A stretch of 64,000 bases of DNA from an uncultured Rhodothermales bacterium (GTDB taxonomy: Bacteria > Bacteroidota > Rhodothermia > Rhodothermales > VXPQ01): positions 5,508 to 69,507 of the forward strand of contig CAZSNF010000007.1 in assembly GCA_964608315.1 (NCBI GenBank), given 5' to 3'. A program made the position numbers and the translations under genes. Below are positions 14,677 to 52,237 of this stretch, piece by piece. Each line of letters begins with the position of its first letter. Positions within the stretch are counted from its first letter, which is position 1. The notes beneath the pieces were generated by a model, which was not told the origin of the DNA, did no database searches, and saw only the letters and a program-made list of their open reading frames with translations.

Positions 14677-15977
14677 CGTACGCCGAAGTCAAACTTTGGG
14701 GAAGCACGGTCGCCGCCGTCACGCTCGCGGACGGCCAGGAAGTCGCCGATTTCGAATTCGCCCCGACATTTCTTGAAAGCGGCATAGAGCCGGCGCCGCT
14801 CGCCATGCCCTTGTCCGGCAGGGTGTACCGGTTTCCTGCGCTTGCCCGCGAATCGTTTTACGGTCTTCCCGGCATGTTGGCGGATGCGCTGCCGGATCGT
14901 TTCGGTCACGCCGTGATCGACGCCTGGCTGGCGAAGCAGGGGAGGCCGCCGGATTCGCTCAATGCCGTCGAGCGGCTGTGTTACACGGGGTCTCGCGGGA
15001 TGGGCGCGATGGAGTTTGCGCCCGCGACGGGGCCCCGGGCAGGTCCGGGGCAGCGTCTTCAGGTGGATCGGCTGGCGGCGCTGGCTTCCGACATCCTGCA
15101 ACGACGCGAAGCATTGCATTTGTCCTTTGGCGAGCAAGACGACGAAGCGCCGCTTCAGGAAATCCTGCGGGTGGGCACGTCCGCAGGCGGCGCCCGCGCA
15201 AAGGCCGTGATCGCCTGGAACCCGCATACCAGGGAGGTTCGCTCGGGACAGATAGCGGCTGGCGACGGGTTCGAATACTGGCTGCTCAAGTTTGACGGCG
15301 TCGGCGGAGAACAGGACGGAGGGTGGGCGGCTCCGAGGGGATACGGCGCCGTCGAATACGCCTATTACCTTATGGCGCGGGACGCCGGGATCGAAATAGC
15401 CGATAGCCGCCTGTTCGAAGAAGGCGGGCGGCGGCATTTCATGACCCGCCGCTTTGATCGGCTGCCTGATGGGGCCAAGTTGCACATGCAGTCGCTGGGC
15501 GCGCTGGCGCACCTTGATTTCAACGAGGCGGGCGCCCATTCTTACGAACAGGCGCTCATGGTCATTCGCAGGCTGGGGCTTTCGATGAACGCGGTAGAGG
15601 AACAGTTTCGCCGCATGGCTTTCAATGTCTTCGCCCGCAACCAGGACGATCACGTGAAAAACATTGCTTTTCTTATGGACAGGACCGGAGCGTGGTCGTT
15701 GGCGCCTGCCTTCGACCTGACCTACGCCTGCAATCCGGAGGGCAAGTGGACCGCTGTCCACCAGATGACGCTGAACGGAAAACAGGAAAAGTTCGGGATG
15801 GAAGATTTCCGGGCCTGCGCCCGGGCCGCCGCCATGAAACGGGGGCGAGCGGAAGCTATTTGCGCCGAGGTCCGCGAGGTCGTGTCGCGCTGGCCGGACT
15901 ACGCGGAAGCGGCGCGCGTCGCCGCCGTGCAACGAGACGCCATACGAGCGCGTATTGAAGATGCTGCTATCCTGTAA
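14673..15977 (+). CDS. hipA: HipA-family serine/threonine kinase toxin
   Basis: 434 aa with the HipA catalytic-loop signature NQDDHVKNIAFLMD. N-terminal coupling to hipB. Confidence 0.9.
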   Translation: MTYAEVKLWGSTVAAVTLADGQEVADFEFAPTFLESGIEPAPLAMPLSGRVYRFPALARESFYGLPGMLADALPDRFGHAVIDAWLAKQGRPPDSLNAVERLCYTGSRGMGAMEFAPATGPRAGPGQRLQVDRLAALASDILQRREALHLSFGEQDDEAPLQEILRVGTSAGGARAKAVIAWNPHTREVRSGQIAAGDGFEYWLLKFDGVGGEQDGGWAAPRGYGAVEYAYYLMARDAGIEIADSRLFEEGGRRHFMTRRFDRLPDGAKLHMQSLGALAHLDFNEAGAHSYEQALMVIRRLGLSMNAVEEQFRRMAFNVFARNQDDHVKNIAFLMDRTGAWSLAPAFDLTYACNPEGKWTAVHQMTLNGKQEKFGMEDFRACARAAAMKRGRAEAICAEVREVVSRWPDYAEAARVAAVQRDAIRARIEDAAIL

Positions 15978-16054
15978 TCGGCGTTATGGGATACTCTGAT
16001 CAAAACCACTTCGCGATATTACACAATATCAAGACTTAAAGTATTACATCAATC

Positions 16055-38245: not shown

Positions 38246-39082
38246 TCACTTATGACACGCCAAACACATCTTGGCCTTTCCGTACAAATCGTCTATATCG
38301 AGGGGTTCGCCGTTTGGGCGGAGCGGATTTGACTGAACTCGAGATTGGGTACGGGCAACCCGTTCGCGGTGGTCTCGCCTGATTTGCGCGACCCGCTCCG
38401 GGCGTTCCAACTCGTCCAGCGATTCTCCCTGGCTCCAGGTAAATGGCGAGCCGTCTTCAAGGGCGTTTTTCTCGTATGCCTTGGCCTCCTCGAACGCTTC
38501 GGGATGTTCTTCCCTGAGGCGAACCCATTCGATTTTCTGCTGGAAGAAACAGAACGTGCACCCGCTTCGCGTACGCCACGAGTAGTACGTTGGCAGACCA
38601 AGACCCGCCGCTTCAAGAATCTCCAGTACGCCCGCCTTGTCAACCCCCGCCTCCCTGAAAGGAAGCCGCACGATGAGGTTTTCGTGCTTGGAGGCATAGC
38701 CTTCCCGGTACGATTCGTCGCTTCGGATGGCGACGTAACTGTAAACGGTCGCGCCCTCGTTGAGCATCGGGCGGACCCAGTGCTCGAACGGTCGCAGTTT
38801 TAATTGACGGGTGCACCAGCGGGTCTGGGCCGAAGGCAGGAATCCATTGTATTGCTTGAGCCAGAAGTCGAAGTCCCGGTCCGGATTGAGTCGGAGGATG
38901 GGTCGTCCCAGCAAGCCCTCCAGTCGCCCAAGATATTCGTAGACTTCGGGCAATTCCTTCCCGGTATCCGTGAAGAAGTAGTCGATCTCCAGGTCAGGGT
39001 GGTACTGGCGCATGTAGACAGCCAGCGCCGCGCTGTCGCGCCCGCCGGAGAGTCCAAGAACATGTTTGACGACGCCCGCCAT
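38246..39082 (-). CDS. PAPS-reductase-family PP-loop ATP pyrophosphatase (SspD/DndC-like)
   Basis: PP-loop LSGGRDSAAL, RWCTRQLKLRP, and the SGCTFCFFQ Cys pair. The ATG shares one nt with the upstream TGA (39082). Confidence 0.85.
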   Translation of the reverse strand: MAGVVKHVLGLSGGRDSAALAVYMRQYHPDLEIDYFFTDTGKELPEVYEYLGRLEGLLGRPILRLNPDRDFDFWLKQYNGFLPSAQTRWCTRQLKLRPFEHWVRPMLNEGATVYSYVAIRSDESYREGYASKHENLIVRLPFREAGVDKAGVLEILEAAGLGLPTYYSWRTRSGCTFCFFQQKIEWVRLREEHPEAFEEAKAYEKNALEDGSPFTWSQGESLDELERPERVAQIRRDHRERVARTQSRVQSNPLRPNGEPLDIDDLYGKAKMCLACHK

Positions 39083-42000
39083 CAGGAAGCCTTCTTTGTT
39101 TTGCCTTTTCTTTCCCGTTCGGGAACCGATTGTTCCATTTCCACGAGAATTTCCGACAGGGCGGCAAGGATAATGCCCTGCCGGTTCGTGCCGACCTCTT
39201 TAAGCGTTTGTTCGATGGTTTGTATCATCTCGTCCACACTGGTCTGGTCCGCATCAGCGATATCGAACTCCTTGAATACAGGCGTAGCCTGCCCGTTTAT
39301 CGGTAAGATCACAGCCATGGACTGCCGTTTATCGCTCCGCCCCTGAACCTCTGCAAAGGTTTCTGCCCGGACAAACTTTCGGCTCAGATCGGCGATTTCC
39401 ATGGTCGCCCTGTCCAGGTCGGGATCGACCCAGGTATGCGGCGGCTTGTTTGCGGCGAGGCTGGCTATTCCCTCAAAGGTTTCGTCCTTGCCGTCGAAAA
39501 CGGAAAGCCTGCCGACGAATGCGTCGATCCGGAAGTCCCCGGATATCCGCTTTATGTTTTTCGCCCGGACGCGCAATTCGTCCATGGAAGAGCGGGAAGT
39601 GTTCGGAACGCGCAGTTCTGCAAGCATGACGTCGCGCAAGCGATGCAGCATGGCGGGATAGGCCGCCACCAGTTCCTCCAACCCCTCGCGCATGTTTTTC
39701 GTAATCCTGCGCAGGCCCTTTTTGTCCGTGGAGGTGACTTTTTCGCCGAAGGTCCCCGGAATGTCGTCGAAGAGGAGCTTGTTCGGGTCCTGCGCTCGTT
39801 TGAAGATGTCCCGAATATTCTTTGCGTTTGCAGAGAGTCGCATGGTCCGCCTGGTCCATTGCGGCAGATCGTCGTAAATGGCTACCAGGCCCCGCGCCAC
39901 ATCAAGGGGCTTCAGGTGAACGAGCGTATTGGAGTAGTCGAGGCTGCGTACGATGTCGGCCATATCCGACAGCAATTGCCGCGCGGCCCCGTTTATGTTC
40001 ATCCAGCGCACCTGAATGCTGTCGGGGCGCTTGGCGAGGCACTCGACGTCCACATCGTCAAAGCGGGCCCTGAACATCCCTTCCCGATAGATAGCCAGAT
40101 TGTCTTTTTGCGACAGCAGGAAGGCCACTGCAAAAACAGGCATTAAGCCGTTTTTGACGCCATAGGGCGGTTTGCGCCAGAGATCGAGCAATTCCGAAAC
40201 GGCGACCGTACGATCGGCGTGTTCCTGCACATATTTGAGCGCGGCCTTCCACATGGGGGCCAGATTGCAGGGATCGTTCGGGCTATCCAGAGGCGATCTA
40301 AAACGCCATGCATCCTTGTTTTGGACATAGAGACCCGTCGCCTCCAGCATCGAGACGAAAAGCCCGCGCTCCGCCGGGTATCCCTCAATGCCCAGTCGCT
40401 CTGTTCCTTCGTGCAGCGCCATGCGCCGCAACAAGTTGTTCTGTGCGGAGACCGCGCTGGCCGATGGTTTCTGTCGGTTGAGAAGTTCGTTATGCAGTTG
40501 AGGGGATTTGTCGAACCGTCGATCCGCCAGCGTGGAAGCGAGATGATTCAAGGCCACATGCCGATAGCGCGCGGGTTCCTCGTTTTTGCTAAACCACAGG
40601 GCATGATCGAATGCCTGGTGCAATTCCGCTTCAAGAAGAGACTGTACGGTTGCGTAGCGGGCGGACACTTCGCGCCGCGCCACGGAATCCCCGGCCAATT
40701 CAGGGCGATACGTTCGCACCTTGTCCAGCGCAAGCAGTTCTCGGGCAAGGGGGACAATGCGATCCGGCGCTTCCGCGACCCCAACGACGGTGTCTCCATC
40801 CGTGTCATGCTGAGCGGTTTCCCGGCAAAGGTCGCGGGTTTGTCGCTTGCTTTCCCCTCGCGCGGGAATGGCGAGCAGAAAACGCCCTGTCGCCTTGCTT
40901 TTCGGGTCGAAACGGGCCGCGTATTCCGCAAGATCGTGCGCCGGGACGATCTTCACATCGAACCAGCGCAGTACGCCCGTTTTATGATAATGACGCTTGG
41001 CAAGGAGCGGGTGGATGCCGGCCAGCGCATTCAGGGATTGAAAATCGACTTCGTCTATATCGTCCAGGGCGTCCTGCGTAGCCTGTTCTATATCGAAATC
41101 GCTTCCGGCGAACACGGCGTAGGCTTCCAGAAACTTTTTGAAAATGACGAACGACCCTTTACGCAACCGGGCCCGCGCGTCCCGAAGTTTTTTGCGGGAC
41201 GATTCGGGAAAACAGGCGGCCAGCAGGTCCGCATTCGCGATGATCCCCGACCGCTCCTTGAACAGGTCGATGACCGCGATGGTCTTGAGCAACCGAATGT
41301 CGAGCGGAGCGCTCCCCAGCGATTCGCAACGTTCGAGCGCTTCCACCGCCGACGACCAGCGGTGCCCATCCGGAGAGGCGAGAATGGAAGGCTCAAGATT
41401 GACGCACAGGTAATCCCAGAGGCGATCCGGGCCGTACAGGTCGTTTTCCTCGGCGTGTTTCAGAAAATCCTGAAAGCCGTGCAGTTCAGAGGAGTTCAGA
41501 AAGCCGAAAATGCTTCGTTGATTTTGCCCGAAACGGCGCCGCGATACGGGACCGAGCAAGCAGGTCGTAACAGGATGCAATGGCCAGCATGCGTCCAGCA
41601 TGTCGGTCAGGGGCGTTATGTCTTCGGTGCGTCCCCGATACGCGCAGGCGGCTACTGCTCTGGAGGGGAGCGTAGAAACGACTTCGGCAGGAGGATCGCC
41701 TTCGATGGCGCGAGCGATCAGGTCGATCTGCTCTTCCCCGGCCGCATTTACGACAAGATCGACGAAACGCCCCTGGATTTTGGTCCATTCGTCGCGCATT
41801 TCTCGGGAAAGGCGGTGGGCGTATTCCTCGAATGCCTGGTGCAACACGCCGATAATGAGCAAACGCCCCTTGCTTCGCGAGGCGGCCTCGGCGAGTTGCT
41901 GCAGAATGTATACGTCGCCATTGTTTTGCGCCGCCGCTTCAAGAAATTTCCCCATTTCGTCGATGAACAGGACAATCCCGTCGTGTTCGTCGGAAGCGGC

Positions 42001-42474
42001 GGTTTCCGTCAGATGCGCGATTACCTTGCTTTCGGTCCAGCCTCCGGCAGGCCGTCGTTTAACGACTCCATTCTCCCGAAGGGCTTCCCCGATAACGGTC
42101 ACGGGGTTATCTCGTCTGCCTACCACCGGGATGATGCGCCGCCCTTTTGCGGTTGTTTTCAGGCCCGACCGGATTTTTTTCGCAAACGCTGCGCCAAAAA
42201 TGCCGTTGGCCGATTTCTTCAAAGCGCGGTCATGGCTTAATAGCGCGCTTAACGCCACGACAAGACTCGATTTGCCGCTTCCGTAGGGCCCTGTCCACGT
42301 AAAGGCGCCTTGCCCGGTTTCGGAAACATGGCGGGCCATGTTCTCCAGTACGCGGGCGGAAGACGCCGGACATACAAAGCCTTCGAGCGCCGTCGTCTCG
42401 TTGAGATCGGCGTCGATGCGGATGGATTTGAGGAAGCGGCGGGCTATATGTACGCGGTCATTCAGCGGCATCAC
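39082..42474 (-). CDS. Large P-loop ATPase (SspC-like / BrxC-DUF499-like)
   Basis: 1130 aa. Walker A GPYGSGKSSLVVAL, Walker B region GIVLFIDEMGKFLE. GTG start overlaps the upstream stop (GTGA at 42471-42474). Confidence 0.75.
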   Translation of the reverse strand: MMPLNDRVHIARRFLKSIRIDADLNETTALEGFVCPASSARVLENMARHVSETGQGAFTWTGPYGSGKSSLVVALSALLSHDRALKKSANGIFGAAFAKKIRSGLKTTAKGRRIIPVVGRRDNPVTVIGEALRENGVVKRRPAGGWTESKVIAHLTETAASDEHDGIVLFIDEMGKFLEAAAQNNGDVYILQQLAEAASRSKGRLLIIGVLHQAFEEYAHRLSREMRDEWTKIQGRFVDLVVNAAGEEQIDLIARAIEGDPPAEVVSTLPSRAVAACAYRGRTEDITPLTDMLDACWPLHPVTTCLLGPVSRRRFGQNQRSIFGFLNSSELHGFQDFLKHAEENDLYGPDRLWDYLCVNLEPSILASPDGHRWSSAVEALERCESLGSAPLDIRLLKTIAVIDLFKERSGIIANADLLAACFPESSRKKLRDARARLRKGSFVIFKKFLEAYAVFAGSDFDIEQATQDALDDIDEVDFQSLNALAGIHPLLAKRHYHKTGVLRWFDVKIVPAHDLAEYAARFDPKSKATGRFLLAIPARGESKRQTRDLCRETAQHDTDGDTVVGVAEAPDRIVPLARELLALDKVRTYRPELAGDSVARREVSARYATVQSLLEAELHQAFDHALWFSKNEEPARYRHVALNHLASTLADRRFDKSPQLHNELLNRQKPSASAVSAQNNLLRRMALHEGTERLGIEGYPAERGLFVSMLEATGLYVQNKDAWRFRSPLDSPNDPCNLAPMWKAALKYVQEHADRTVAVSELLDLWRKPPYGVKNGLMPVFAVAFLLSQKDNLAIYREGMFRARFDDVDVECLAKRPDSIQVRWMNINGAARQLLSDMADIVRSLDYSNTLVHLKPLDVARGLVAIYDDLPQWTRRTMRLSANAKNIRDIFKRAQDPNKLLFDDIPGTFGEKVTSTDKKGLRRITKNMREGLEELVAAYPAMLHRLRDVMLAELRVPNTSRSSMDELRVRAKNIKRISGDFRIDAFVGRLSVFDGKDETFEGIASLAANKPPHTWVDPDLDRATMEIADLSRKFVRAETFAEVQGRSDKRQSMAVILPINGQATPVFKEFDIADADQTSVDEMIQTIEQTLKEVGTNRQGIILAALSEILVEMEQSVPERERKGKTKKAS

Positions 42475-43430
42475 GCAGCTCGCTTGTCGGTGGCTTGGGC
42501 GTAATCGCCCCGTATGTATTCCAGTGCTTCATGGTCTTTGATCTCCCGGGTTCGCACGAGTTGTTTCATACCTGCCGTTTCAGACCATTTGACAAGGCCA
42601 TTCGTAACCTCTTCATGAGAAATTAACAATTCCATCAGGTCGTTTTCGCCCAGTCCGAATACGCGGCCCGGCCCGCAAGGCGCGTGCGCAATCGCTTCGA
42701 AGGACAGCGTATCCGCTTTGGAATACGACTCCCAGAACTTCGCAAGCGCATAGGCGAATATGCCTTTTCCAAGGGTTGGCTTGGGGCCTCGGACAAAACG
42801 AAACTCGTCTTTTTTGTCCATGGCCTTGATCAGCCCCAGTTCGGTCAACGGGGATTCAAGTACGCCGTCGTGCCCGGCCTGACCCGTCGATTGTCGGGCG
42901 ACATAGGTGCGGATCAGGCAGGCCACATCGTTTTTTATGGTGATTTTGGATGGGTTCGGAATCCCGCGATCTCGTGCAAAGCGTTCGATTTGTGCAACCA
43001 TGGTATCCCGCTCGAATGTCACGGCAGGATAGTAACTGAATGCCCAGAGCCAGGTTGTTTTTTCCGGATGGGTCGCTATTTGCACATGGAGCAGCCAGAG
43101 CGTCGAAGGGTCTTCCATGTACGGATCCAATCCGTCCGCCCCAAACAGTATTTCGCCAAGATCCGTTGTCTGAACCGAGTTCGTTCCGGCCGGTTCTTCG
43201 ACGATTCCGATTATTCTGGCCCAGTGTCGCATGGAGGCGACCATGTTCTTGCCTACGCCGAATCGCGCAATGGCGTCGTCGCCCCAGCAAGCGGCCTTTT
43301 GATCAGGTTCTCCTTTTGTCTCGCTGACGCGGTCAAAGACCTTTTTCAGCCATCCGTAGCGCAACGGGAACGTTTCATGCCCCGAAAATCGAGGCATATA
43401 GCCCTTTTCGTATAGTGGTCCACGAGGCAT
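42471..43430 (-). CDS. DUF4007-family protein (SspB-like)
   Basis: N-terminal RFSGHETFPLRYGWLKKV is the signature recalled for DUF4007. 319 aa. First gene of the minus-strand operon. Confidence 0.8.
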   Translation of the reverse strand: MPRGPLYEKGYMPRFSGHETFPLRYGWLKKVFDRVSETKGEPDQKAACWGDDAIARFGVGKNMVASMRHWARIIGIVEEPAGTNSVQTTDLGEILFGADGLDPYMEDPSTLWLLHVQIATHPEKTTWLWAFSYYPAVTFERDTMVAQIERFARDRGIPNPSKITIKNDVACLIRTYVARQSTGQAGHDGVLESPLTELGLIKAMDKKDEFRFVRGPKPTLGKGIFAYALAKFWESYSKADTLSFEAIAHAPCGPGRVFGLGENDLMELLISHEEVTNGLVKWSETAGMKQLVRTREIKDHEALEYIRGDYAQATDKRAA

Positions 43431-43760
43431 GTTTTTCCGCGAGCCGGATATATTATTACCTCCAGATACAGTACCCTACCGGACCGGAACGCCATGAGAA
43501 GGGCGGTTTCCGCCGTAGTGCGCGACATTGTCGGGAGGCAGGTCCGAAAACGCCGGGCGATACGGCGGGCGTTCTGTCAAGTAGTGCCCATGCTCCGAAA
43601 GGTCGGGATTTTTACGCTGGATTTCAACCCGCCCAGGGTCCCGCGATTGCAAAAGGCCATATTTTTCGCTTACCTTGTAATGCAGAACGCGACCGGAACC
43701 GCCGCCATAAATATATGTACAAAATATGTACAATGTTCCTCGTAGAGACGCAATTTGTTT

Positions 43761-44016
43761 AGGAACCTCTGATTAATTCTGCAAAGTTCAGAGGCTGCGC
43801 GGGACGCGCTGGCAAGGAATGACGAAGCAATGCGGCAGGCCCCGCATAATGAGGAATGACGCAGCCAGCGCGTCCCGCGCAGCCTCCCGAAGGGTGCTTC
43901 ACGTCCGCCATGCCCTGAATCCAGAGCGTTTATCGCTGATTTCAACGACGCAGTCATAACGTCCTGTGCGTGTGAACGTGAAGCGCTGATCGAAGTAGAA
44001 TTAATCAGAGGTTCCT
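43761..44016 (+). repeat. Structured ~256-nt repeat, copy 1 (candidate ncRNA or MITE-like element)
   Basis: Perfect 20-bp terminal inverted repeat (43761-43780 / 43997-44016). Perfect 23-bp internal hairpin (43791-43813 / 43864-43886) with an apical ATGCGG/CCGCAT stem. Long-range pairing 43895-43904 / 43976-43985. About 80% identical to copy 2. Confidence 0.8.
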
Positions 44017-44034
44017 TTATTCCGCCCCTGATCC

Positions 44035-45222
44035 ATGCCCGCCGCGAACCCCATCTACCTGGATCACCAAGCCACCACGCCGATCCATCCGGACGTGCTG
44101 GCCGCCATGCAGCCCTGGTTTGCGGAGGCGTTCGGCAATCCGCATTCGTCGGATCATGTGCTCGGCTGGCGATCTTCTCAAGCTGTCGATGAGGCAGCGG
44201 AGCAGGTGGCGAGGTTGATCGGCGCGGACGCCGACGAAATCATCTTTACGTCGGGGGCCACCGAATCCAACAACATGGCGTTGCTTGGATTGGCCCGCCG
44301 CGCCGCAGGGAGCGAACGCCGCCGCGTGTTGCTGAGCGCCATTGAGCACAAATCCGTGCTCGCCGCAGGAAGGGCGATAGAGGAACAGTTGGGTTTTGTC
44401 GTCGAGCATATCCCGGTAGATCGGGAAGGGTTCATCGACATGGAAGCGTTTCTCGACGCGCTGGACGAGGATGTGCTTGTCGTGTCCGTCATGGCCGTGA
44501 ATAATGAAATCGGGACGGTGCAGGATGTGGAGCGGATTGCAAAAGCGGCAAGGGCGTACGGGGCGGTTTTCCATTGCGACGCCGGGCAGGCGCCTATCGC
44601 CATATCCATGGACGGCTTTGCGCAGATCGCGGACATGGCGAGTCTTTCCGCGCACAAGATGTACGGCCCGAAAGGAATCGGGGCCTTGTACTTGTCCCAT
44701 GAGGTGCAGCCGCGCATCGAACCGTTGATCTACGGAGGCGGTCAGCAGCATGGATTGCGGTCGGGCACGACGCCAGTTCCTTTGTGCGTGGGCATGGGGG
44801 CGGCGGCAGGGATGCTGCGCACGGAAGAGATTGCTGAAAAACGTTCGAAGTTGGCTCGTCGCCGCAATGCGTTCGTGGAGCGGCTTCGCCGCTCGTCGTG
44901 GCCTGTCGTACTCAACGGCCCCTGGTCGCTGGCTCGCCATCCCGGCAACGCGAATATCCGTTTTCCCGGGTTTTCGGCGCACGACATACTCGCTGCCTTG
45001 CAACCGAATCTGGCGGCCTCGACCGGTTCTGCGTGCACGTCGGGTACGCCGGAGCCGTCCCATGTGCTCAAGGCCATTGGCCTTTCCGGCGACGAGGCGG
45101 AATCTTCCATTCGCTTCAGCCTCGGTTTCGACACCAGCGACCACGAAGTGGAATCGGCGGCGGAGTTGATCGAAGCCGCCCTGAAAAAACTCGCCGCAGT
45201 CGAGCAATTCGACCTTGTTTGA
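44035..45222 (+). CDS. Class V aminotransferase cysteine desulfurase (NifS/IscS; DndA/SspA-like)
   Basis: 395 aa. IYLDHQATTP N-terminus, PLP-Lys motif SLSAHKMYGPKGIGALY, catalytic Cys loop STGSACTSG. Confidence 0.9.
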   Translation: MPAANPIYLDHQATTPIHPDVLAAMQPWFAEAFGNPHSSDHVLGWRSSQAVDEAAEQVARLIGADADEIIFTSGATESNNMALLGLARRAAGSERRRVLLSAIEHKSVLAAGRAIEEQLGFVVEHIPVDREGFIDMEAFLDALDEDVLVVSVMAVNNEIGTVQDVERIAKAARAYGAVFHCDAGQAPIAISMDGFAQIADMASLSAHKMYGPKGIGALYLSHEVQPRIEPLIYGGGQQHGLRSGTTPVPLCVGMGAAAGMLRTEEIAEKRSKLARRRNAFVERLRRSSWPVVLNGPWSLARHPGNANIRFPGFSAHDILAALQPNLAASTGSACTSGTPEPSHVLKAIGLSGDEAESSIRFSLGFDTSDHEVESAAELIEAALKKLAAVEQFDLV

Positions 45223-45240
45223 GAAGATTTCACCTGCCCG

Positions 45241-45284
45241 CCTTAAAAATTTAAGTCCAAAAAATTAGACTTAAAAAATTAAGG
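45241..45284. repeat. AT-only paired motif CCTTAAAAATTTAAGTC / GACTTAAAAAATTAAGG
   Basis: Two CTTAA..TTAAG-type near-palindromes 28 nt apart, abutting the start of repeat copy 2. Related motifs occur at 56941-56987, 57251-57265 and 57378-57429. Confidence 0.6.
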
Positions 45285-45539
45285 ATGCTCTGATCAAATG
45301 TGCAAAGTTCAGAGGCTGCGAGAGGTGCGCTGGCAAGGAATGACGAAGCAATGTGGCAGGTTCCACATAATGAGGAATGACACAGCCAGAGTGCCTCTCG
45401 CAGCCTCCCGAAGGGCGCTTCACGTCCGCCATGCACCGAATCCGCAGCGTTTACCGCTGATTTCAACGAGGCCGGCACAGTGTCCTGTACCCACGAAACG
45501 TGAAGCGCTGATCGAAGCAGATTTGATCAGAGCATCCTT
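45281..45539 (+). repeat. Structured ~259-nt repeat, copy 2
   Basis: Terminal pairing 45281-45303 / 45517-45539 (22 of 23). Internal hairpin 45312-45334 / 45385-45407 with three compensatory pair changes and two G-T pairs relative to copy 1. Pairing 45416-45425 / 45498-45507. Confidence 0.8.
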
Positions 45540-45709
45540 AAGGCTACCCTGATTGGCGTCGCGTTTCTCAAACGGTTCGTAGTGGGCGCAGCTCCGAAAA
45601 TGCCTACTTTGCGCTGCAGCGCGTTCTGTGCGTTTTGGGGATGTGCGAGCAATCGAACCTCGGTTTGCCTGGGCGGCTGACGCCCCTGTTTTGAAAAACC
45701 AAAGAAGGC

Positions 45710-45738
45710 TTGACTGTGTTTTTGCGACGAGTTATATT
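45710..45738 (+). promoter_or_regulatory. Sigma-70-like promoter candidate (TTGACT-N17-TATATT)
   Basis: TTGACT at 45710-45715 and TATATT at 45733-45738, upstream of the low-GC small secreted/lipoprotein genes. Promoter rules for this phylum are uncertain. Confidence 0.3.
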
Positions 45739-46052
45739 ATAAGAAGTTGCCACTTTCAAGTAGGCCGGATCGTCCTGAACTATTAACTTAAATAGAGGAA
45801 AAAAATGATACTAACGTATCTTTACAGCCTTGCTTTTAATAGCTTCCATGGGTGTTGCCTATATTGCTGATGCTGCAAAACCTCCCGATTGCTCCTATGA
45901 GGCAGATGGCTGCGGGGTCAAAGGGTGGCTTAATGAAGATGGGACTGCTAATTTCGTTATGTATTGCGATGACCAAATCATCGCAATATACACGAGCCCG
46001 GCAGCAGGTTCCTGTGGTTCGTAAACCTGATCACCCGAATGAGGATATAACC

Positions 46053-46700
46053 ATGCGCAAGCTAACATCAGTCATTCTCACGGTATTGGCGCTCGTTTCA
46101 GTTACCGGATGTCAACAGACTCCTGTAGCAGAATCCAATCGAACGCTTTTCGATGAAGTTGACGCCAATCAAAATCAATCCGGGCTTGTAACATATCTTG
46201 CCCGCACTGGAGAAAAACCAGCGAACGATCCGGTGGATGAGCGATCCATTCGTTTGTACGAAAAGGCTGTTGAACCTTTGCGATATTTGACGAAAAATTA
46301 TGCAGAGGGTTCAATTTCCTTAGAGGAGTTTGATGCAGGCGCGCGTGGCATACTTGAGGGTATCGCAGGAGATGAAGGAATTATTTCTGAGGCTGAACAG
46401 TCAGTTGCACATGCTGTGCTACACGCTATCCTGACTGATCAAAGCGCTCCCCAGGAGACGATTGCCTATTATACGGATATTCTTGTTCAGAGAAAGTCTC
46501 CTCATGCCGAGGTGATTTACGAAGCTTTGGTTGCGCTTGACGGATATTGGAATGAGGAACATGTCAAGACGGCTGCTTCCGAGTCCATTATGAATGCTGA
46601 AGCATGGCTTGGCGATTCGGAAGATCGCGTACGTATTTCAGCAGACAGTCGCAGTGATATTGGTTCTGCGCTGCAGGATATGTCGCAACTTGCTGAGTAG
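46053..46700 (+). CDS. Lipoprotein, function unknown
   Basis: GAGGA sits 7 nt upstream of ATG 46053. Lipobox in MRKLTSVILTVLALVSVTGCQQ. 215 aa. Lower GC than the flanking gyrB. Confidence 0.6.
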   Translation: MRKLTSVILTVLALVSVTGCQQTPVAESNRTLFDEVDANQNQSGLVTYLARTGEKPANDPVDERSIRLYEKAVEPLRYLTKNYAEGSISLEEFDAGARGILEGIAGDEGIISEAEQSVAHAVLHAILTDQSAPQETIAYYTDILVQRKSPHAEVIYEALVALDGYWNEEHVKTAASESIMNAEAWLGDSEDRVRISADSRSDIGSALQDMSQLAE

Positions 46701-51310: not shown

Positions 51311-51333
51311 GAGGACATTCTGATCAAATCTGC
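51311..51333 (+). repeat. 5' end-like sequence of the structured-repeat family, upstream of the methyltransferase gene
   Basis: GAGGACATTCTGATCAAATCTGC resembles the copy 2 5' end AAGGATGCTCTGATCAAATGTGC. It is partly complementary (17 of 20 including one G-T) to 52209-52228. Confidence 0.5.
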
Positions 51334-51373
51334 TTCGCTCGGCGCGTCGCTTTCGCATGTAAAGGATATTCTG

Positions 51374-52201
51374 ATGGAATACGATCCGATCAAGGATTCG
51401 CTGGGGAAATTTTTCCGCATCCATCCCGTGTTGCAGCGCCTGTTTTTCGCGCTGCTGCACGCCGTGTTCTTGCGGTCCTGGTACGTGCGCCGGGAAGTGC
51501 GCGCCTTGCTGAGGCCTGCGCGGACGGGGCAACCGGCGGAGGTGCTGGATGCGGGAACGGGATTCGGGCAGTATGCGGCGCATATCGTCCGGCGCTTTCC
51601 GGGCGCCCGGGTGCTGGCCGTGGACGTCAAGTTGGATTATCTCGCCGACCTGAGGCGGTTTGCAGAGCGGGCGGGGCTGCGGGATCGCATGGCGTTTCTC
51701 GAATACGACCTGACCGGCCCGCCTCTGGACCAGACGTTCGACCTGATCGTTTCGGTGGATGTGATGGAGCATATCGAGGACGACCGGACCGTTTTCCGCA
51801 ATTTTGCGCAGATGCTCCGGGAAGGAGGCCATGTCATTGTCAACACGCCTTCGGATCAGGGCGGATCGGATACGGAGGCGCACGGCGAGGAAGGATTTAT
51901 CGGCGAGCACGTGCGTCCCGGATACGGCCTTGAGGCGTTGCGGGACAAGATGGCGGAGGCGGGCCTGGAAACGGTGCGGGCCCGGTATACCTACGGGACC
52001 TTCGGTTCGATAGGCTGGCGCATTCTCGTCAAGTGGCCCATGCGCCTCTTGTCTGCGACGCGGCTGGCCTTCGCCGCGCTGCCGGCGTATTACCTTGCGG
52101 CGCTGCCCGTGGGCCTCGTCCTGAACGCGATAGATGTGCGAAGCCGCAACGAAACCGGCACGGGCCTGATTCTCGTTGCGCGCAAGAACGTGAAGCGCTG
52201 A
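51374..52201 (+). CDS. Class I SAM-dependent methyltransferase
   Basis: AAGGA sits 7 nt upstream of ATG 51374. SAM-binding motif VLDAGTGFGQYA and the DLIVSVDVMEHI region. 275 aa with C-terminal hydrophobic helices. Confidence 0.8.
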   Translation: MEYDPIKDSLGKFFRIHPVLQRLFFALLHAVFLRSWYVRREVRALLRPARTGQPAEVLDAGTGFGQYAAHIVRRFPGARVLAVDVKLDYLADLRRFAERAGLRDRMAFLEYDLTGPPLDQTFDLIVSVDVMEHIEDDRTVFRNFAQMLREGGHVIVNTPSDQGGSDTEAHGEEGFIGEHVRPGYGLEALRDKMAEAGLETVRARYTYGTFGSIGWRILVKWPMRLLSATRLAFAALPAYYLAALPVGLVLNAIDVRSRNETGTGLILVARKNVKR

Positions 52202-52237
52202 TCGCAGTAGATTTAATCAGAGCATCCTGCAGGATGC
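52187..52237 (+). repeat. 3' end-like sequence of the structured-repeat family, overlapping the methyltransferase stop, plus a 16-bp palindrome
   Basis: AACGTGAAGCGCTGATCGCAGTAGATTTAATCAGAGCATCCT matches the last ~42 nt of copies 1 and 2. GCATCCTGCAGGATGC (52222-52237) is a perfect palindrome. Confidence 0.6.

Follow-up and report, generated by a model that had tools for sequence, protein, structure and literature searches.

Two copies of a long, structured repeat lie in the same orientation on either side of sspA in the stretch of 64,000 nucleotides analysed here (the window), raising the question of whether they serve this gene or came to lie beside it by another route. The gene itself (44035..45222, + strand) encodes a cysteine desulfurase (Pfam Aminotran_5, 2.5e-80; PADLOC SspA, 6.9e-128) and stands between the two repeats, outside both, with its ATG at 44035, 18 nt past copy 1, and its stop at 45222, 58 nt ahead of copy 2, as the initial annotation had described. 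When short duplicated targets are included, the direct repeats span 43758-44019 and 45279-45541. Without them, the core of copy 1 is 254 nt long (43762-44015, + strand, the left terminus running from 43762 and the right terminus to 44015) and that of copy 2 is 255 nt long (45283-45537, + strand). The mutual identity between the cores was measured at 83.5%, in line with the approximately 80% given earlier for the two same-orientation copies.

Both cores are bordered by direct 4-bp repeats, TTTA at 43758..43761 and the same non-palindromic 4-mer at 44016..44019 in copy 1, and TTAA at 45279..45282 and 45538..45541 in copy 2. A terminal helix had been proposed to close each repeat; its inverted arms were found, but its outermost TTTA/TTTA and TTAA/TTAA are target-site duplications (TSDs) and not helix. 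The terminal inverted repeats (TIRs) of the window copies have arms of 31-34 nt that are 84-85% complementary, and the family termini, GGATRCTCTGAT…ATCAGAGYATCC, are conserved across 73 copies. Of these 73 copies, 32 have perfect direct flanks of 4 bp, where 8.7 would be expected, and non-palindromic sequences make up 14 of the 32; each of the other duplication lengths is found in only 0-5 copies, so that 4 bp alone works. The consensus TSD, TTAA, accounts for 14 of the 32 perfect cases, and TTTA, TACA, CATG, TTAT, GTAA and CTAA are among the rest.

Further signs of mobility were recovered from comparisons between loci. In related genomes empty sites were seen: one locus (L068) has a single CATT where another (L026) reads CATT, the element and AATT in succession, and a second empty site (L088) lacks both the element and the 4 bp that its counterpart (L002) carries. 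Pairs of copies that are 98-99.6% identical occur at distant loci within one genome, and a series of internal deletions retains both termini. Transposition has been recent on the complete chromosomes OX638293.1, OX638295.1 and OZ246975.1. Each window copy is ∼86% identical to copies in other genomes, compared with 83.5% to its neighbour. Given that their TSDs differ and that they are not each other's nearest kin, the window copies represent two separate insertions. TIRs, a fixed 4-bp TSD, small non-coding size and multi-copy dispersal with presence/absence polymorphism, the features by which MITEs are recognised, are all found in the family. The two repeats are thus very probably independent insertions of a non-autonomous MITE of the cut-and-paste type, ∼254 bp in size, that belongs to a family of the Rhodothermales clade, and of the origins first considered for them the MITE-like one has been borne out by the TSDs and the demonstrated mobility. 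Copy 1 inserted into TTTA in the spacer upstream of sspA and copy 2 into TTAA downstream, each duplicating its A/T-rich target, and a transposase supplied in trans would presumably recognise the GGATRCTCTGAT termini and make 4-bp staggered cuts.

With respect to coding potential, the profile of variability over the three codon positions is flat, at 0.060/0.078/0.074, and frame shifts are seen in some copies. On the minus strand, the presence of a long open frame is largely explained by composition (such a frame occurs in 85% of copies and in 42% of shuffles) and the frame shows no codon periodicity; a small-protein reading was rejected. Orthologous copies, in the only two true pairs, are 96-99% identical over the element and 89-97% over the flanks, which is at most suggestive of selection.

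In order to place the window copies within their family, its occurrence was analysed in other genomes. A search with a 19-mer from the loop of the element returned at least 78 matching stretches, at least 76 of these in 8 Rhodothermales MAGs, and along chromosome OX638293.1 the matches range from 8 kb to 2.45 Mb. Members of the family were found in 8 or more Rhodothermales MAG species and in two metagenome assemblies. Many deletion derivatives were collected together with 73 distinct full-length copies of about 254 nt, whose pairwise identities have a median of 80%. No Rfam-type family had been recognised at first reading, and cmscan of 43000-46500 on both strands agreed, with 0 matches at E-value ≤ 10. 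The repeats are a previously undescribed high-copy family, confined to one Rhodothermales clade and present in dozens of copies per genome, for which the termini, TSD, consensus fold and deletion series are now defined.

Nearly every copy is intergenic, as judged from genes called by a codon-usage model that was checked against Pfam-supported genes. Where the flanking genes are in tandem, 10 copies are sense and 22 antisense to the host genes, with no sense bias. The genes beside the copies examined have unrelated housekeeping functions (PFK, ADH, anthranilate synthase, polyprenyl synthetase and similar), and when ORFs of 150 aa or more from 79 loci were clustered all against all, no protein family recurred next to the copies.

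These patterns bear directly on the proposal that the repeats are a small RNA or cis-regulator tied to the phosphorothioation desulfurase. In its strongest form, copy 1 would act as the 5' leader and copy 2 as the 3' element of a dedicated Ssp-system RNA, jointly controlling sspA; both copies are sense to the gene, they lie close to its start and its stop, and their fold, described below, is genuine and specific to the + strand. Against this, the same element is scattered chromosome-wide, in dozens of copies per genome, beside unrelated genes and in either orientation to them, and the unequal TSDs and distant kinship of the window copies point to two insertions. Neither are ssp genes associated with the family as a whole, the desulfurase-like ORFs at two further loci lying 0.9 kb and 3.6 kb off the nearest copy. 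Control of sspA by a dedicated RNA is hence highly improbable, and the flanking of the gene by element copies appears to be incidental, which removes a tempting false lead for the regulation of phosphorothioation. Given the sense orientation of both copies, an sspA transcript that started upstream of copy 1 and read through copy 2 would contain one very stable structure in the 5' leader and a second in the 3' trailer. The copies also explain why short-read assembly breaks on both sides of sspA: a 1332-nt Logan contig carries the gene alone, and short-read contigs end at the element.

The source of the transposition functions was sought by scanning the window and the 79 genome loci (about 630 kb) for matching termini. 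These sequences yielded only MITEs, mini-forms and cut-off ends, and neither an autonomous element nor a transposase that shares the termini. One pair of facing termini (L027, 3904-5830) was considered as a candidate autonomous element and discarded, the enclosed genes being a PFK-neighbour, an OMP-decarboxylase-family gene and a Zn-ADH. A scan of metagenome loci (236 kb), in which the query was the terminus plus a filter base, gave 22 loci without a cognate transposase, all of them minis or remnants beside housekeeping genes. The viral-set scan yielded 0 matches, and blastn against plasmids and phages no match. Since no cognate enzyme was recovered from these collections, a DDE transposase can be no more than a candidate mobiliser. 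Among known transposons, IS5 duplicates 4 bp with the motif YTAR (PMC10359306). The element resembles it in the length of the TSD, in the fit of TTAA and CTAA to YTAR and in termini that start with GG, and differs in that about half of the perfect TSDs (TTTA, TACA, CATG, TTAT, GTAA) fall off the motif. An IS5-type transposase with matching termini was not found in the loci searched, and an IS5-like enzyme as mobiliser of the element may be taken as a lead only. The TSDs and the transposase had been named together at the outset as what a known transposable element would display, and of the two the TSDs alone were recovered in these loci.

If the repeats are mobile elements, the question remains why they fold so strongly. 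Predicted RNA folds of copies 1 and 2 reach -142 and -132.8 kcal/mol, with z scores of -12.0 and -10.3 relative to dinucleotide shuffles. The + strand folds into three parts: the terminal helix, a hairpin of ∼100 nt and a second domain with GCGCTTCACG/CGTGAAGCGC as its closing helix. What the initial annotation had drawn inside the terminal helix was recovered in both copies. The complementarity of the inner 23-bp hairpin (+ strand; arms at 43791-43813 and 43864-43886 in copy 1, and at 45312-45334 and 45385-45407 in copy 2) amounts to 100% in copy 1 and to 87% in copy 2. Its apical stem (43830-43847, + strand, in copy 1) has the sequence ATGCGG/CCGCAT in copy 1, which is replaced by ATGTGG/CCACAT in copy 2. 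In the second domain of copy 1, a long-range helix, GCTTCACGT/ACGTGAAGC, joins 43896-43904 to 43976-43984 (+ strand), and GGAATGAC occurs on both sides of the internal loop in copy 1 (43816-43823 and 43853-43860, + strand) and in copy 2 (45337-45344 and 45374-45381, + strand). The changes reported between the two 23-bp hairpins are likewise present (C-G to A-T, G-C to A-T, A-T to G-C, one T·G and one G·T), together with a G·A mismatch that had gone unmentioned. The internal loop of the hairpin is 16x16, purine-rich and carries GGAAUGAC on both strands.

Extended to the whole family, 53 pairs over 73 copies are paired in 97.9% of cells, compared with 32-45% in slid controls. Such cell counts exceed the number of events that occurred independently, as the copies are related by descent, and the measure that relatedness inflates least is the count of pairs with changes on both sides; 19 pairs show such changes, as opposed to 9.3 ± 1.6 in shuffles, and 19 was reached by 0 of 500 shuffles. 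The loops behave differently from the stems. In the 14 copies that lack the search key, the identity of the two loop strands is 0.96 and 0.93, compared with 0.88-0.91 for the stems, so that conservation of the loop is not an artefact of the key; the purine-rich internal loop is at least as strongly conserved as the termini. Stems drift by compensatory change and loops remain fixed, and the more than 70 diverged copies constitute a clean natural data set for covarying stems around a fixed purine-rich loop on one strand.

Such a fold could also be a functionless legacy of palindromic origin, in which pair changes arise by template switching or mismatch correction within the palindrome and spread from a few master copies. 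Palindromic origin is common in MITEs, many of which fold since both of their halves come from inverted IS ends (review PMC3184786). The copies can be sorted into subfamilies whose members have both halves of a changed pair in common, hence many double changes were inherited once, and related sequences are able to beat shuffles even without structure. In contrast, palindromic origin does not predict that the loop strands, the best-conserved part, are direct rather than inverted repeats of each other, and correction by template switching, being symmetric, predicts neither the excess of G·T over A·C pairs detailed below nor purine-rich loops on one strand only. The count of double-change pairs, least raised by relatedness, also argues against it, and we give this explanation a small chance of being right.

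The strand on which the fold operates is indicated by its wobble pairs. From G·T pairs in the two window copies, a single-stranded structure of the plus strand had been put forward, and this is upheld on 73 copies, which contain 412 G·T and 36 A·C cells; G·T reaches a count of 5 or more cells in 13 pairs, and A·C does so in 1 pair. Folding energy is lower for the + strand in 60 of the 73 copies, and in 67 of 73 for hairpin 1 alone (p = 3e-12). Unpaired positions are 67% purine, and the + strand contains 3.1 CGAAG motifs per copy, compared with 0.07 for the complement. A promoter and terminator scan detected no σ70-type promoter or intrinsic terminator inside the copies, and neither this result nor the lack of sense bias lends support to transcription of the + strand. 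The fold would act as a single-stranded + strand, most likely as RNA that may derive from read-through or from an unrecognised promoter.

The same asymmetry (G·T far in excess of A·C) is explained equally well by single-stranded DNA. The folded + strand would then be what is moved or recognised, either in an HUH-like manner (of the IS200/IS605 or REP/RAYT type) or by a hairpin-binding transposase. CGAAG is the core of very stable DNA mini-hairpins, and its presence about three times per copy on the + strand only agrees with such a role, as do the equal conservation of loop and termini and the resemblance of hairpin-less derivatives to dead ends. Several truncations stop at the hairpin apex, suggesting hairpin extrusion in DNA. 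Long TIRs with a variable 4-bp duplication are, on the other hand, a sign of double-strand DDE transposition, whether cut-and-paste or copy-paste. HUH elements are not known to have long TIRs or target duplication, both of which are present here, and among the loci examined no copy had an HUH or RAYT gene in its vicinity. Action of the fold as single-stranded DNA is accordingly considered unlikely.

Hairpin-less forms of ∼155 nt provide a further view of the fold, and each of the few such derivatives has a distinct deletion junction, as expected of dead ends. As hairpin-bearing forms alone have multiplied, the fold appears to be part of the element's own biology, in so far as these few derivatives indicate. 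The conservation of loops at the level of the termini, the strand specificity of the fold and the unique hairpin-less junctions together suggest that the hairpin with its invariant GGAAUGAC/GGAAUGAC purine loop is a single-stranded RNA or ssDNA module needed for multiplication of the element, a tentative suggestion that is rather improbable as it stands. Such a module could serve as a binding platform or cofactor for a putative transposase or a host protein. If the loop is indeed needed for mobility, a folded-strand requirement would be unusual in a transposon with TIRs and TSDs.

Other small repeats offer partial parallels. In bcr1 of the Bacillus cereus group, compensatory changes keep a double stem-loop at the single-strand level (review PMC3184786, citing Økstad 2004 and Klevan 2007). 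Like bcr1, the Rhodothermales element is a small dispersed chromosomal repeat with short flanking direct repeats, a distribution that is not conserved between related strains and a covarying fold. The two differ in size (∼155 bp for bcr1, ∼254 bp here) and flanks (5-bp direct repeats as opposed to a 4-bp TSD); bcr1 is transcribed and belongs to Firmicutes, and the Rhodothermales element has TIRs of 21-31 nt and no sequence similarity to it. The element belongs to an established kind, that of small mobile repeats whose fold covaries, as in bcr1.

Correia elements of Neisseria and the enterobacterial ERIC/IRU are classical MITEs with effects at the RNA level, and the former duplicate TA and carry an IHF site. 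Both resemble the present family in being non-autonomous, intergenic and multi-copy, with TIRs and a TSD, and they form long hairpins when co-transcribed with their neighbours (PMC2229807, PMC3184786). The GGAAUGAC internal loop of the Rhodothermales element is not known from either of those families, and the Rhodothermales family differs also in having no sense-orientation bias. IS200/IS605-derived PATEs and REP sequences share strand-specific conserved hairpins and high intergenic copy number; identity with them was rejected, given that TIRs and target duplication, present in the Rhodothermales element, are not known from them. An integron attC site was rejected as well: the copies are single, dispersed, in both orientations and flanked by 4-bp TSDs, in contrast to attC sites, which stand singly at the 3' end of each cassette in integrase-adjacent arrays without duplication.

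Elements of this kind are expected to interrupt assemblies, to give rise to spurious calls of small ORFs and to alter gene ends, and smaller pieces of the family occur elsewhere in the window. Terminus-like sites with 3 mismatches at 2957, 3797, 13992, 19326 and 43299 are ambiguous and are not claimed as element. A solo right-end remnant of 25 nt, GGATACTCTGATCAAAACCACTTCG (15989..16013, - strand), lies directly past the stop of an ORF that ends at 15977. Two right-end fragments surround an ORF for a SAM-methyltransferase (51374-52201). The upstream one is inverted (51313..51360, - strand); the other (52186..52227, + strand), an nhmmer match, has 91-93% identity with the last 43 nt at the 3' end of both window copies. 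The 4-mers flanking the pair are unequal (TTGA and TGCA), and the fragments around the methyltransferase ORF are therefore not the product of one recent transposition. The fragment at 52186..52227 gives this ORF its final codons (NVKR) and its stop codon, an example of a gene end changed by the element.

The ORF at 44035-45222, identified as sspA (PADLOC SspA, 6.9e-128), is flanked by two direct copies of a ~254-nt repeat, copy 1 (43758-44019) ending 18 nt before its ATG and copy 2 (45279-45541) starting 58 nt past its stop codon, as stated in the initial annotation. Together with the divergent minus-strand genes sspB (42471-43430), sspC (39082-42474) and sspD (38246-39082) it forms a complete SspABCD phosphorothioation cluster (38246-45222; PADLOC E-values from 1e-100 down to 0), with gyrB downstream of sspA. 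The two copies are 83.5% identical to one another, versus ~86% identity of each to copies in other genomes, and with their different target-site duplications (TSDs; TTTA/TTTA at copy 1, TTAA/TTAA at copy 2) they represent separate, independent insertion events of one mobile element. The spacer immediately upstream of copy 2 (45240-45282) is an A/T-rich near-repeat, TTAAAAATTTAAGTCCAAAAAATTAGACTTAAAAAATTAA, containing AAGTCC and its complement GGACTT (other strand of AGACTT…), similar to the AAGTCC found subterminally in the element's terminus.

The distribution of the element was analyzed in a species-representative genome collection, using a 19-mer from its loop (AAGGAATGACGAAGCAATG) as search key. 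The key matches at least 78 stretches, and 76 of the matches listed fall in eight Rhodothermales MAGs, the element being dispersed over at least that number of loci. Among the matches listed, 31 loci occur in OX638293.1 (spanning 8 kb to 2.45 Mb), 18 in OX638295.1, 9 in OZ246975.1 and 7 in OZ220746.1; smaller assemblies hold the remainder. The two other listed matches, one in a Paenibacillus and one in a Saccharimonadia genome, were discarded as chance occurrences of the 19-mer, with no element present. Iterated nhmmer on the 19-mer loci recovered 154 matches and 73 distinct full-length copies, with a median pairwise identity of 80%. The element is absent from plasmid, phage and viral collections, a literature search returned nothing on it, and the element region has no Rfam match at E-value ≤ 10, in keeping with the earlier failure to recognise any Rfam family. 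Short-read contigs stop at the element, as exemplified by a 1332-nt Logan contig that is exactly sspA and nothing more.

Of the origins initially proposed for the repeat, the MITE-like one is borne out by its inverted termini, 4-bp TSDs, empty sites and near-identical distant copies. When the 73 copies are aligned the core runs GGATRCTCTGAT…ATCAGAGYATCC, and the 4 nt outside it form a direct repeat in 32 of them, versus 8.7 under random pairing. These flanks are non-palindromic in 14 of the 32 cases (five TTTA, two TACA, and one each of TTAT, CTAA, GTAA, CATA and others) and hence are not an extension of the inverted repeat. Only a duplication length of 4 works, with T-T-A-A as target consensus. 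An empty site is seen at locus L068, which reads GGGCATT followed by GTACGAAC, versus CATT, element, AATT and GTACGAAC at L026; similarly, L002 has the element plus 4 bp and L088 is without both. Recent movement is indicated by pairs of copies that are 98-99.6% identical and separated by hundreds of kilobases within the same genome (L078/L041, L057/L012, L023/L045, L009/L024 and L055/L020), and deletion derivatives of ~187 nt, 155 nt and 57-80 nt, plus a recurrent 36-nt mini-form, retain both termini. Gene context, derived from a codon-usage gene caller validated on Pfam-supported genes, places essentially all copies in intergenic regions (21 in divergent spacers, 6 in convergent spacers, 10 tandem sense and 22 tandem antisense). 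Ends, TSDs, presence/absence, near-identical distant copies, deletion series and intergenic placement define the element as a MITE, and the joint presence of terminal inverted repeats (TIRs) and a TSD rules out an IS200/IS605-type PATE or REP element.

The mini-form (36-37 nt, GGATACTCTGATTAAGTCCGCRAAGYTCAGAGTATCC) occurs at many different sites, each with its own 4-bp flanks (L054:7585-7621, L082:3134-3170, L084:8083-8119, L089:9818-9854, L099:7953-7989 and others), and could either be mobile itself or be made repeatedly by deletion between TCAGAG microhomologies. Tandem or nested arrays with a common junction 4-mer were also observed (L075:6728-7239, L028:194-532, L044:3953-4399, L027:1319-1614), in some of which the second copy starts AAATAC and not GGATAC.

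The one MITE hallmark not recovered is a cognate transposase. Scanning the window and 79 loci for termini, clustering ORFs at element loci and searching viral, plasmid and phage collections revealed no autonomous element, and a filtered metagenome scan yielded nothing but mini-forms and remnants next to housekeeping genes. A single candidate pair, with termini facing each other, was rejected, since it encloses metabolic genes. Mobilization presumably depends on a transposase acting in trans and making 4-bp staggered cuts. The 4-bp TSD, its TTAA-like consensus and termini starting with GG are reminiscent of IS5, whose TSD motif is YTAR (PMC10359306); however, about half of the element's perfect TSDs fall outside YTAR, and thus an IS5-type relationship is only a lead.

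Both window copies adopt the common fold initially described. Each has TIRs of 31-34 nt, an inner 23-bp hairpin, the long-range helix GCTTCACGT/ACGTGAAGC and a 16x16 internal loop with GGAATGAC on either side. Copy 1 has a perfect 23-bp hairpin and the apical stem ATGCGG/CCGCAT; in copy 2 the hairpin is 87% complementary and the apical stem is ATGTGG/CCACAT. Predicted RNA folding energies are -142 kcal/mol for copy 1 and -132.8 kcal/mol for copy 2 (z of -12 and -10 versus dinucleotide shuffles). The compensatory changes reported for the 23-bp hairpin were recovered: three pairs substituted on both sides and two wobbles, with the addition of one G·A mismatch that had been omitted. Over the 73-copy alignment RNAalifold assigns 53 pairs, with standard pairing in 97.9% of cells, a value that falls to 32-45% when the 3' partner is slid by 1-3 columns. 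Nineteen pairs change on both sides, versus 9.3 ± 1.6 with shuffled partners (0 of 500 shuffles reach 19), among them 5-295 (AU 51, GC 16), 16-283 (GU 26, GC 24, AU 16, UA 6), 39-134 (AU 36, CG 24), 44-129 (GC 42, GU 14, AU 11, CG 4) and 156-261 (UA 56, GC 10). The internal-loop strands are direct, not inverted, copies of each other. The 5' strand served as search key, so its invariance reflects ascertainment in part; in the 14 copies without the exact key the loop strands, at 0.96 and 0.93 identity, are still the best conserved parts (left terminus 0.94, stems 0.88-0.91, domain 2 interior 0.85). No coding signal was found in the 73 full-length copies. The minus strand has a frame open for 75 or more codons in 85% of copies versus 42% of dinucleotide shuffles, and codon periodicity is absent, so that gene callers likely emit spurious ~80-aa hypothetical proteins.

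The fold is strand-specific. G·T cells number 412 versus 36 A·C cells, with at least five G·T in 13 pairs and at least five A·C in one, and the plus (element's own) strand is more stable than the minus strand in 60 of 73 copies (p = 4e-10; 67 of 73 for hairpin 1, p = 3e-12). Its unpaired positions are 67% purine, and it carries 3.1 CGAAG and 1.9 GGAATGAC per copy, versus 0.07 and 0 for the respective complements. These patterns suggest that the fold acts as a single-stranded plus-strand form. The plus-strand fold first deduced from G·T pairs is upheld by the 73-copy set as a whole. RNA is probably the likelier form, as purine-rich symmetric loops, possible G·A pairs in tandem and the abundance of G·U would favor it, single-stranded DNA being less likely.

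A cis-regulatory or processed RNA tied to sspA, as also proposed, is very unlikely given dispersed copies, independent insertions and the lack of any association with ssp genes across the family. The copies were found to contain neither a promoter nor a terminator, a sense-orientation bias relative to host genes is absent (10 sense versus 22 antisense in tandem contexts), and no two hairpin-less derivatives share a deletion junction, which fits decay products that are dead ends. Given these observations and loops conserved like the termini, the fold may serve propagation of the element rather than a host gene, this being the weakest step of the interpretation. Locally, since both copies are sense-oriented, an sspA transcript starting upstream of copy 1 and reading through copy 2 would bear very stable leader and trailer structures. 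At 83.5% identity and with a longest common run of 27 nt, the copies would be poor substrates for recombination deleting sspA, making such an event improbable rather than impossible.

The element has functional analogues in the Correia and ERIC elements. Bacillus bcr1, a transcribed repeat of ~155 bp with 5-bp direct repeats, maintains a double stem-loop through compensatory changes (PMC3184786). The element has its architecture in common with all three but differs in sequence, size, TSD and host. Mobile small repeats with a fold kept by compensatory change are an already known kind, to which this family belongs.

Fragments of the element also occur elsewhere in the window. A SAM-dependent methyltransferase ORF (51374-52201; Pfam Methyltransf_25/11/23) lies between two mutually inverted right-end fragments, one upstream (51313-51360, inverted) and one (52186-52227) providing its last four codons (NVKR) and stop. 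The 4-mers flanking the pair (51313-52227) are mismatched, TTGA versus TGCA, and hence a recent composite transposition seems unlikely. A solo 25-nt remnant is found at 15989-16013.

A subfamily of copies has the interior of domain 2, the second folded domain, in reverse orientation to the remainder of the element (nhmmer matches to model positions 137-234 fall on the other strand; L043:2961-3214, L078:4821-5074, L079:5498-5751, L041:5657-5910, L002:2112-2365, L066:6345-6598), apparently through a flip of the segment between the arms GCGCTTCACG/CGTGAAGCGC. This subfamily has been recently active, the distant L078 and L041 copies being 99.6% identical, and thus the domain 2 interior need not lie in one given orientation. 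Finally, several truncated copies end at model positions ~86-96, the apex of hairpin 1, where they join unrelated DNA (L071:2035, L077:2093, L070:2827, L025:3032, L028:194-274, L010:1615, L009:7863), a pattern expected of in vivo cleavage or slippage at the tip of the palindrome.
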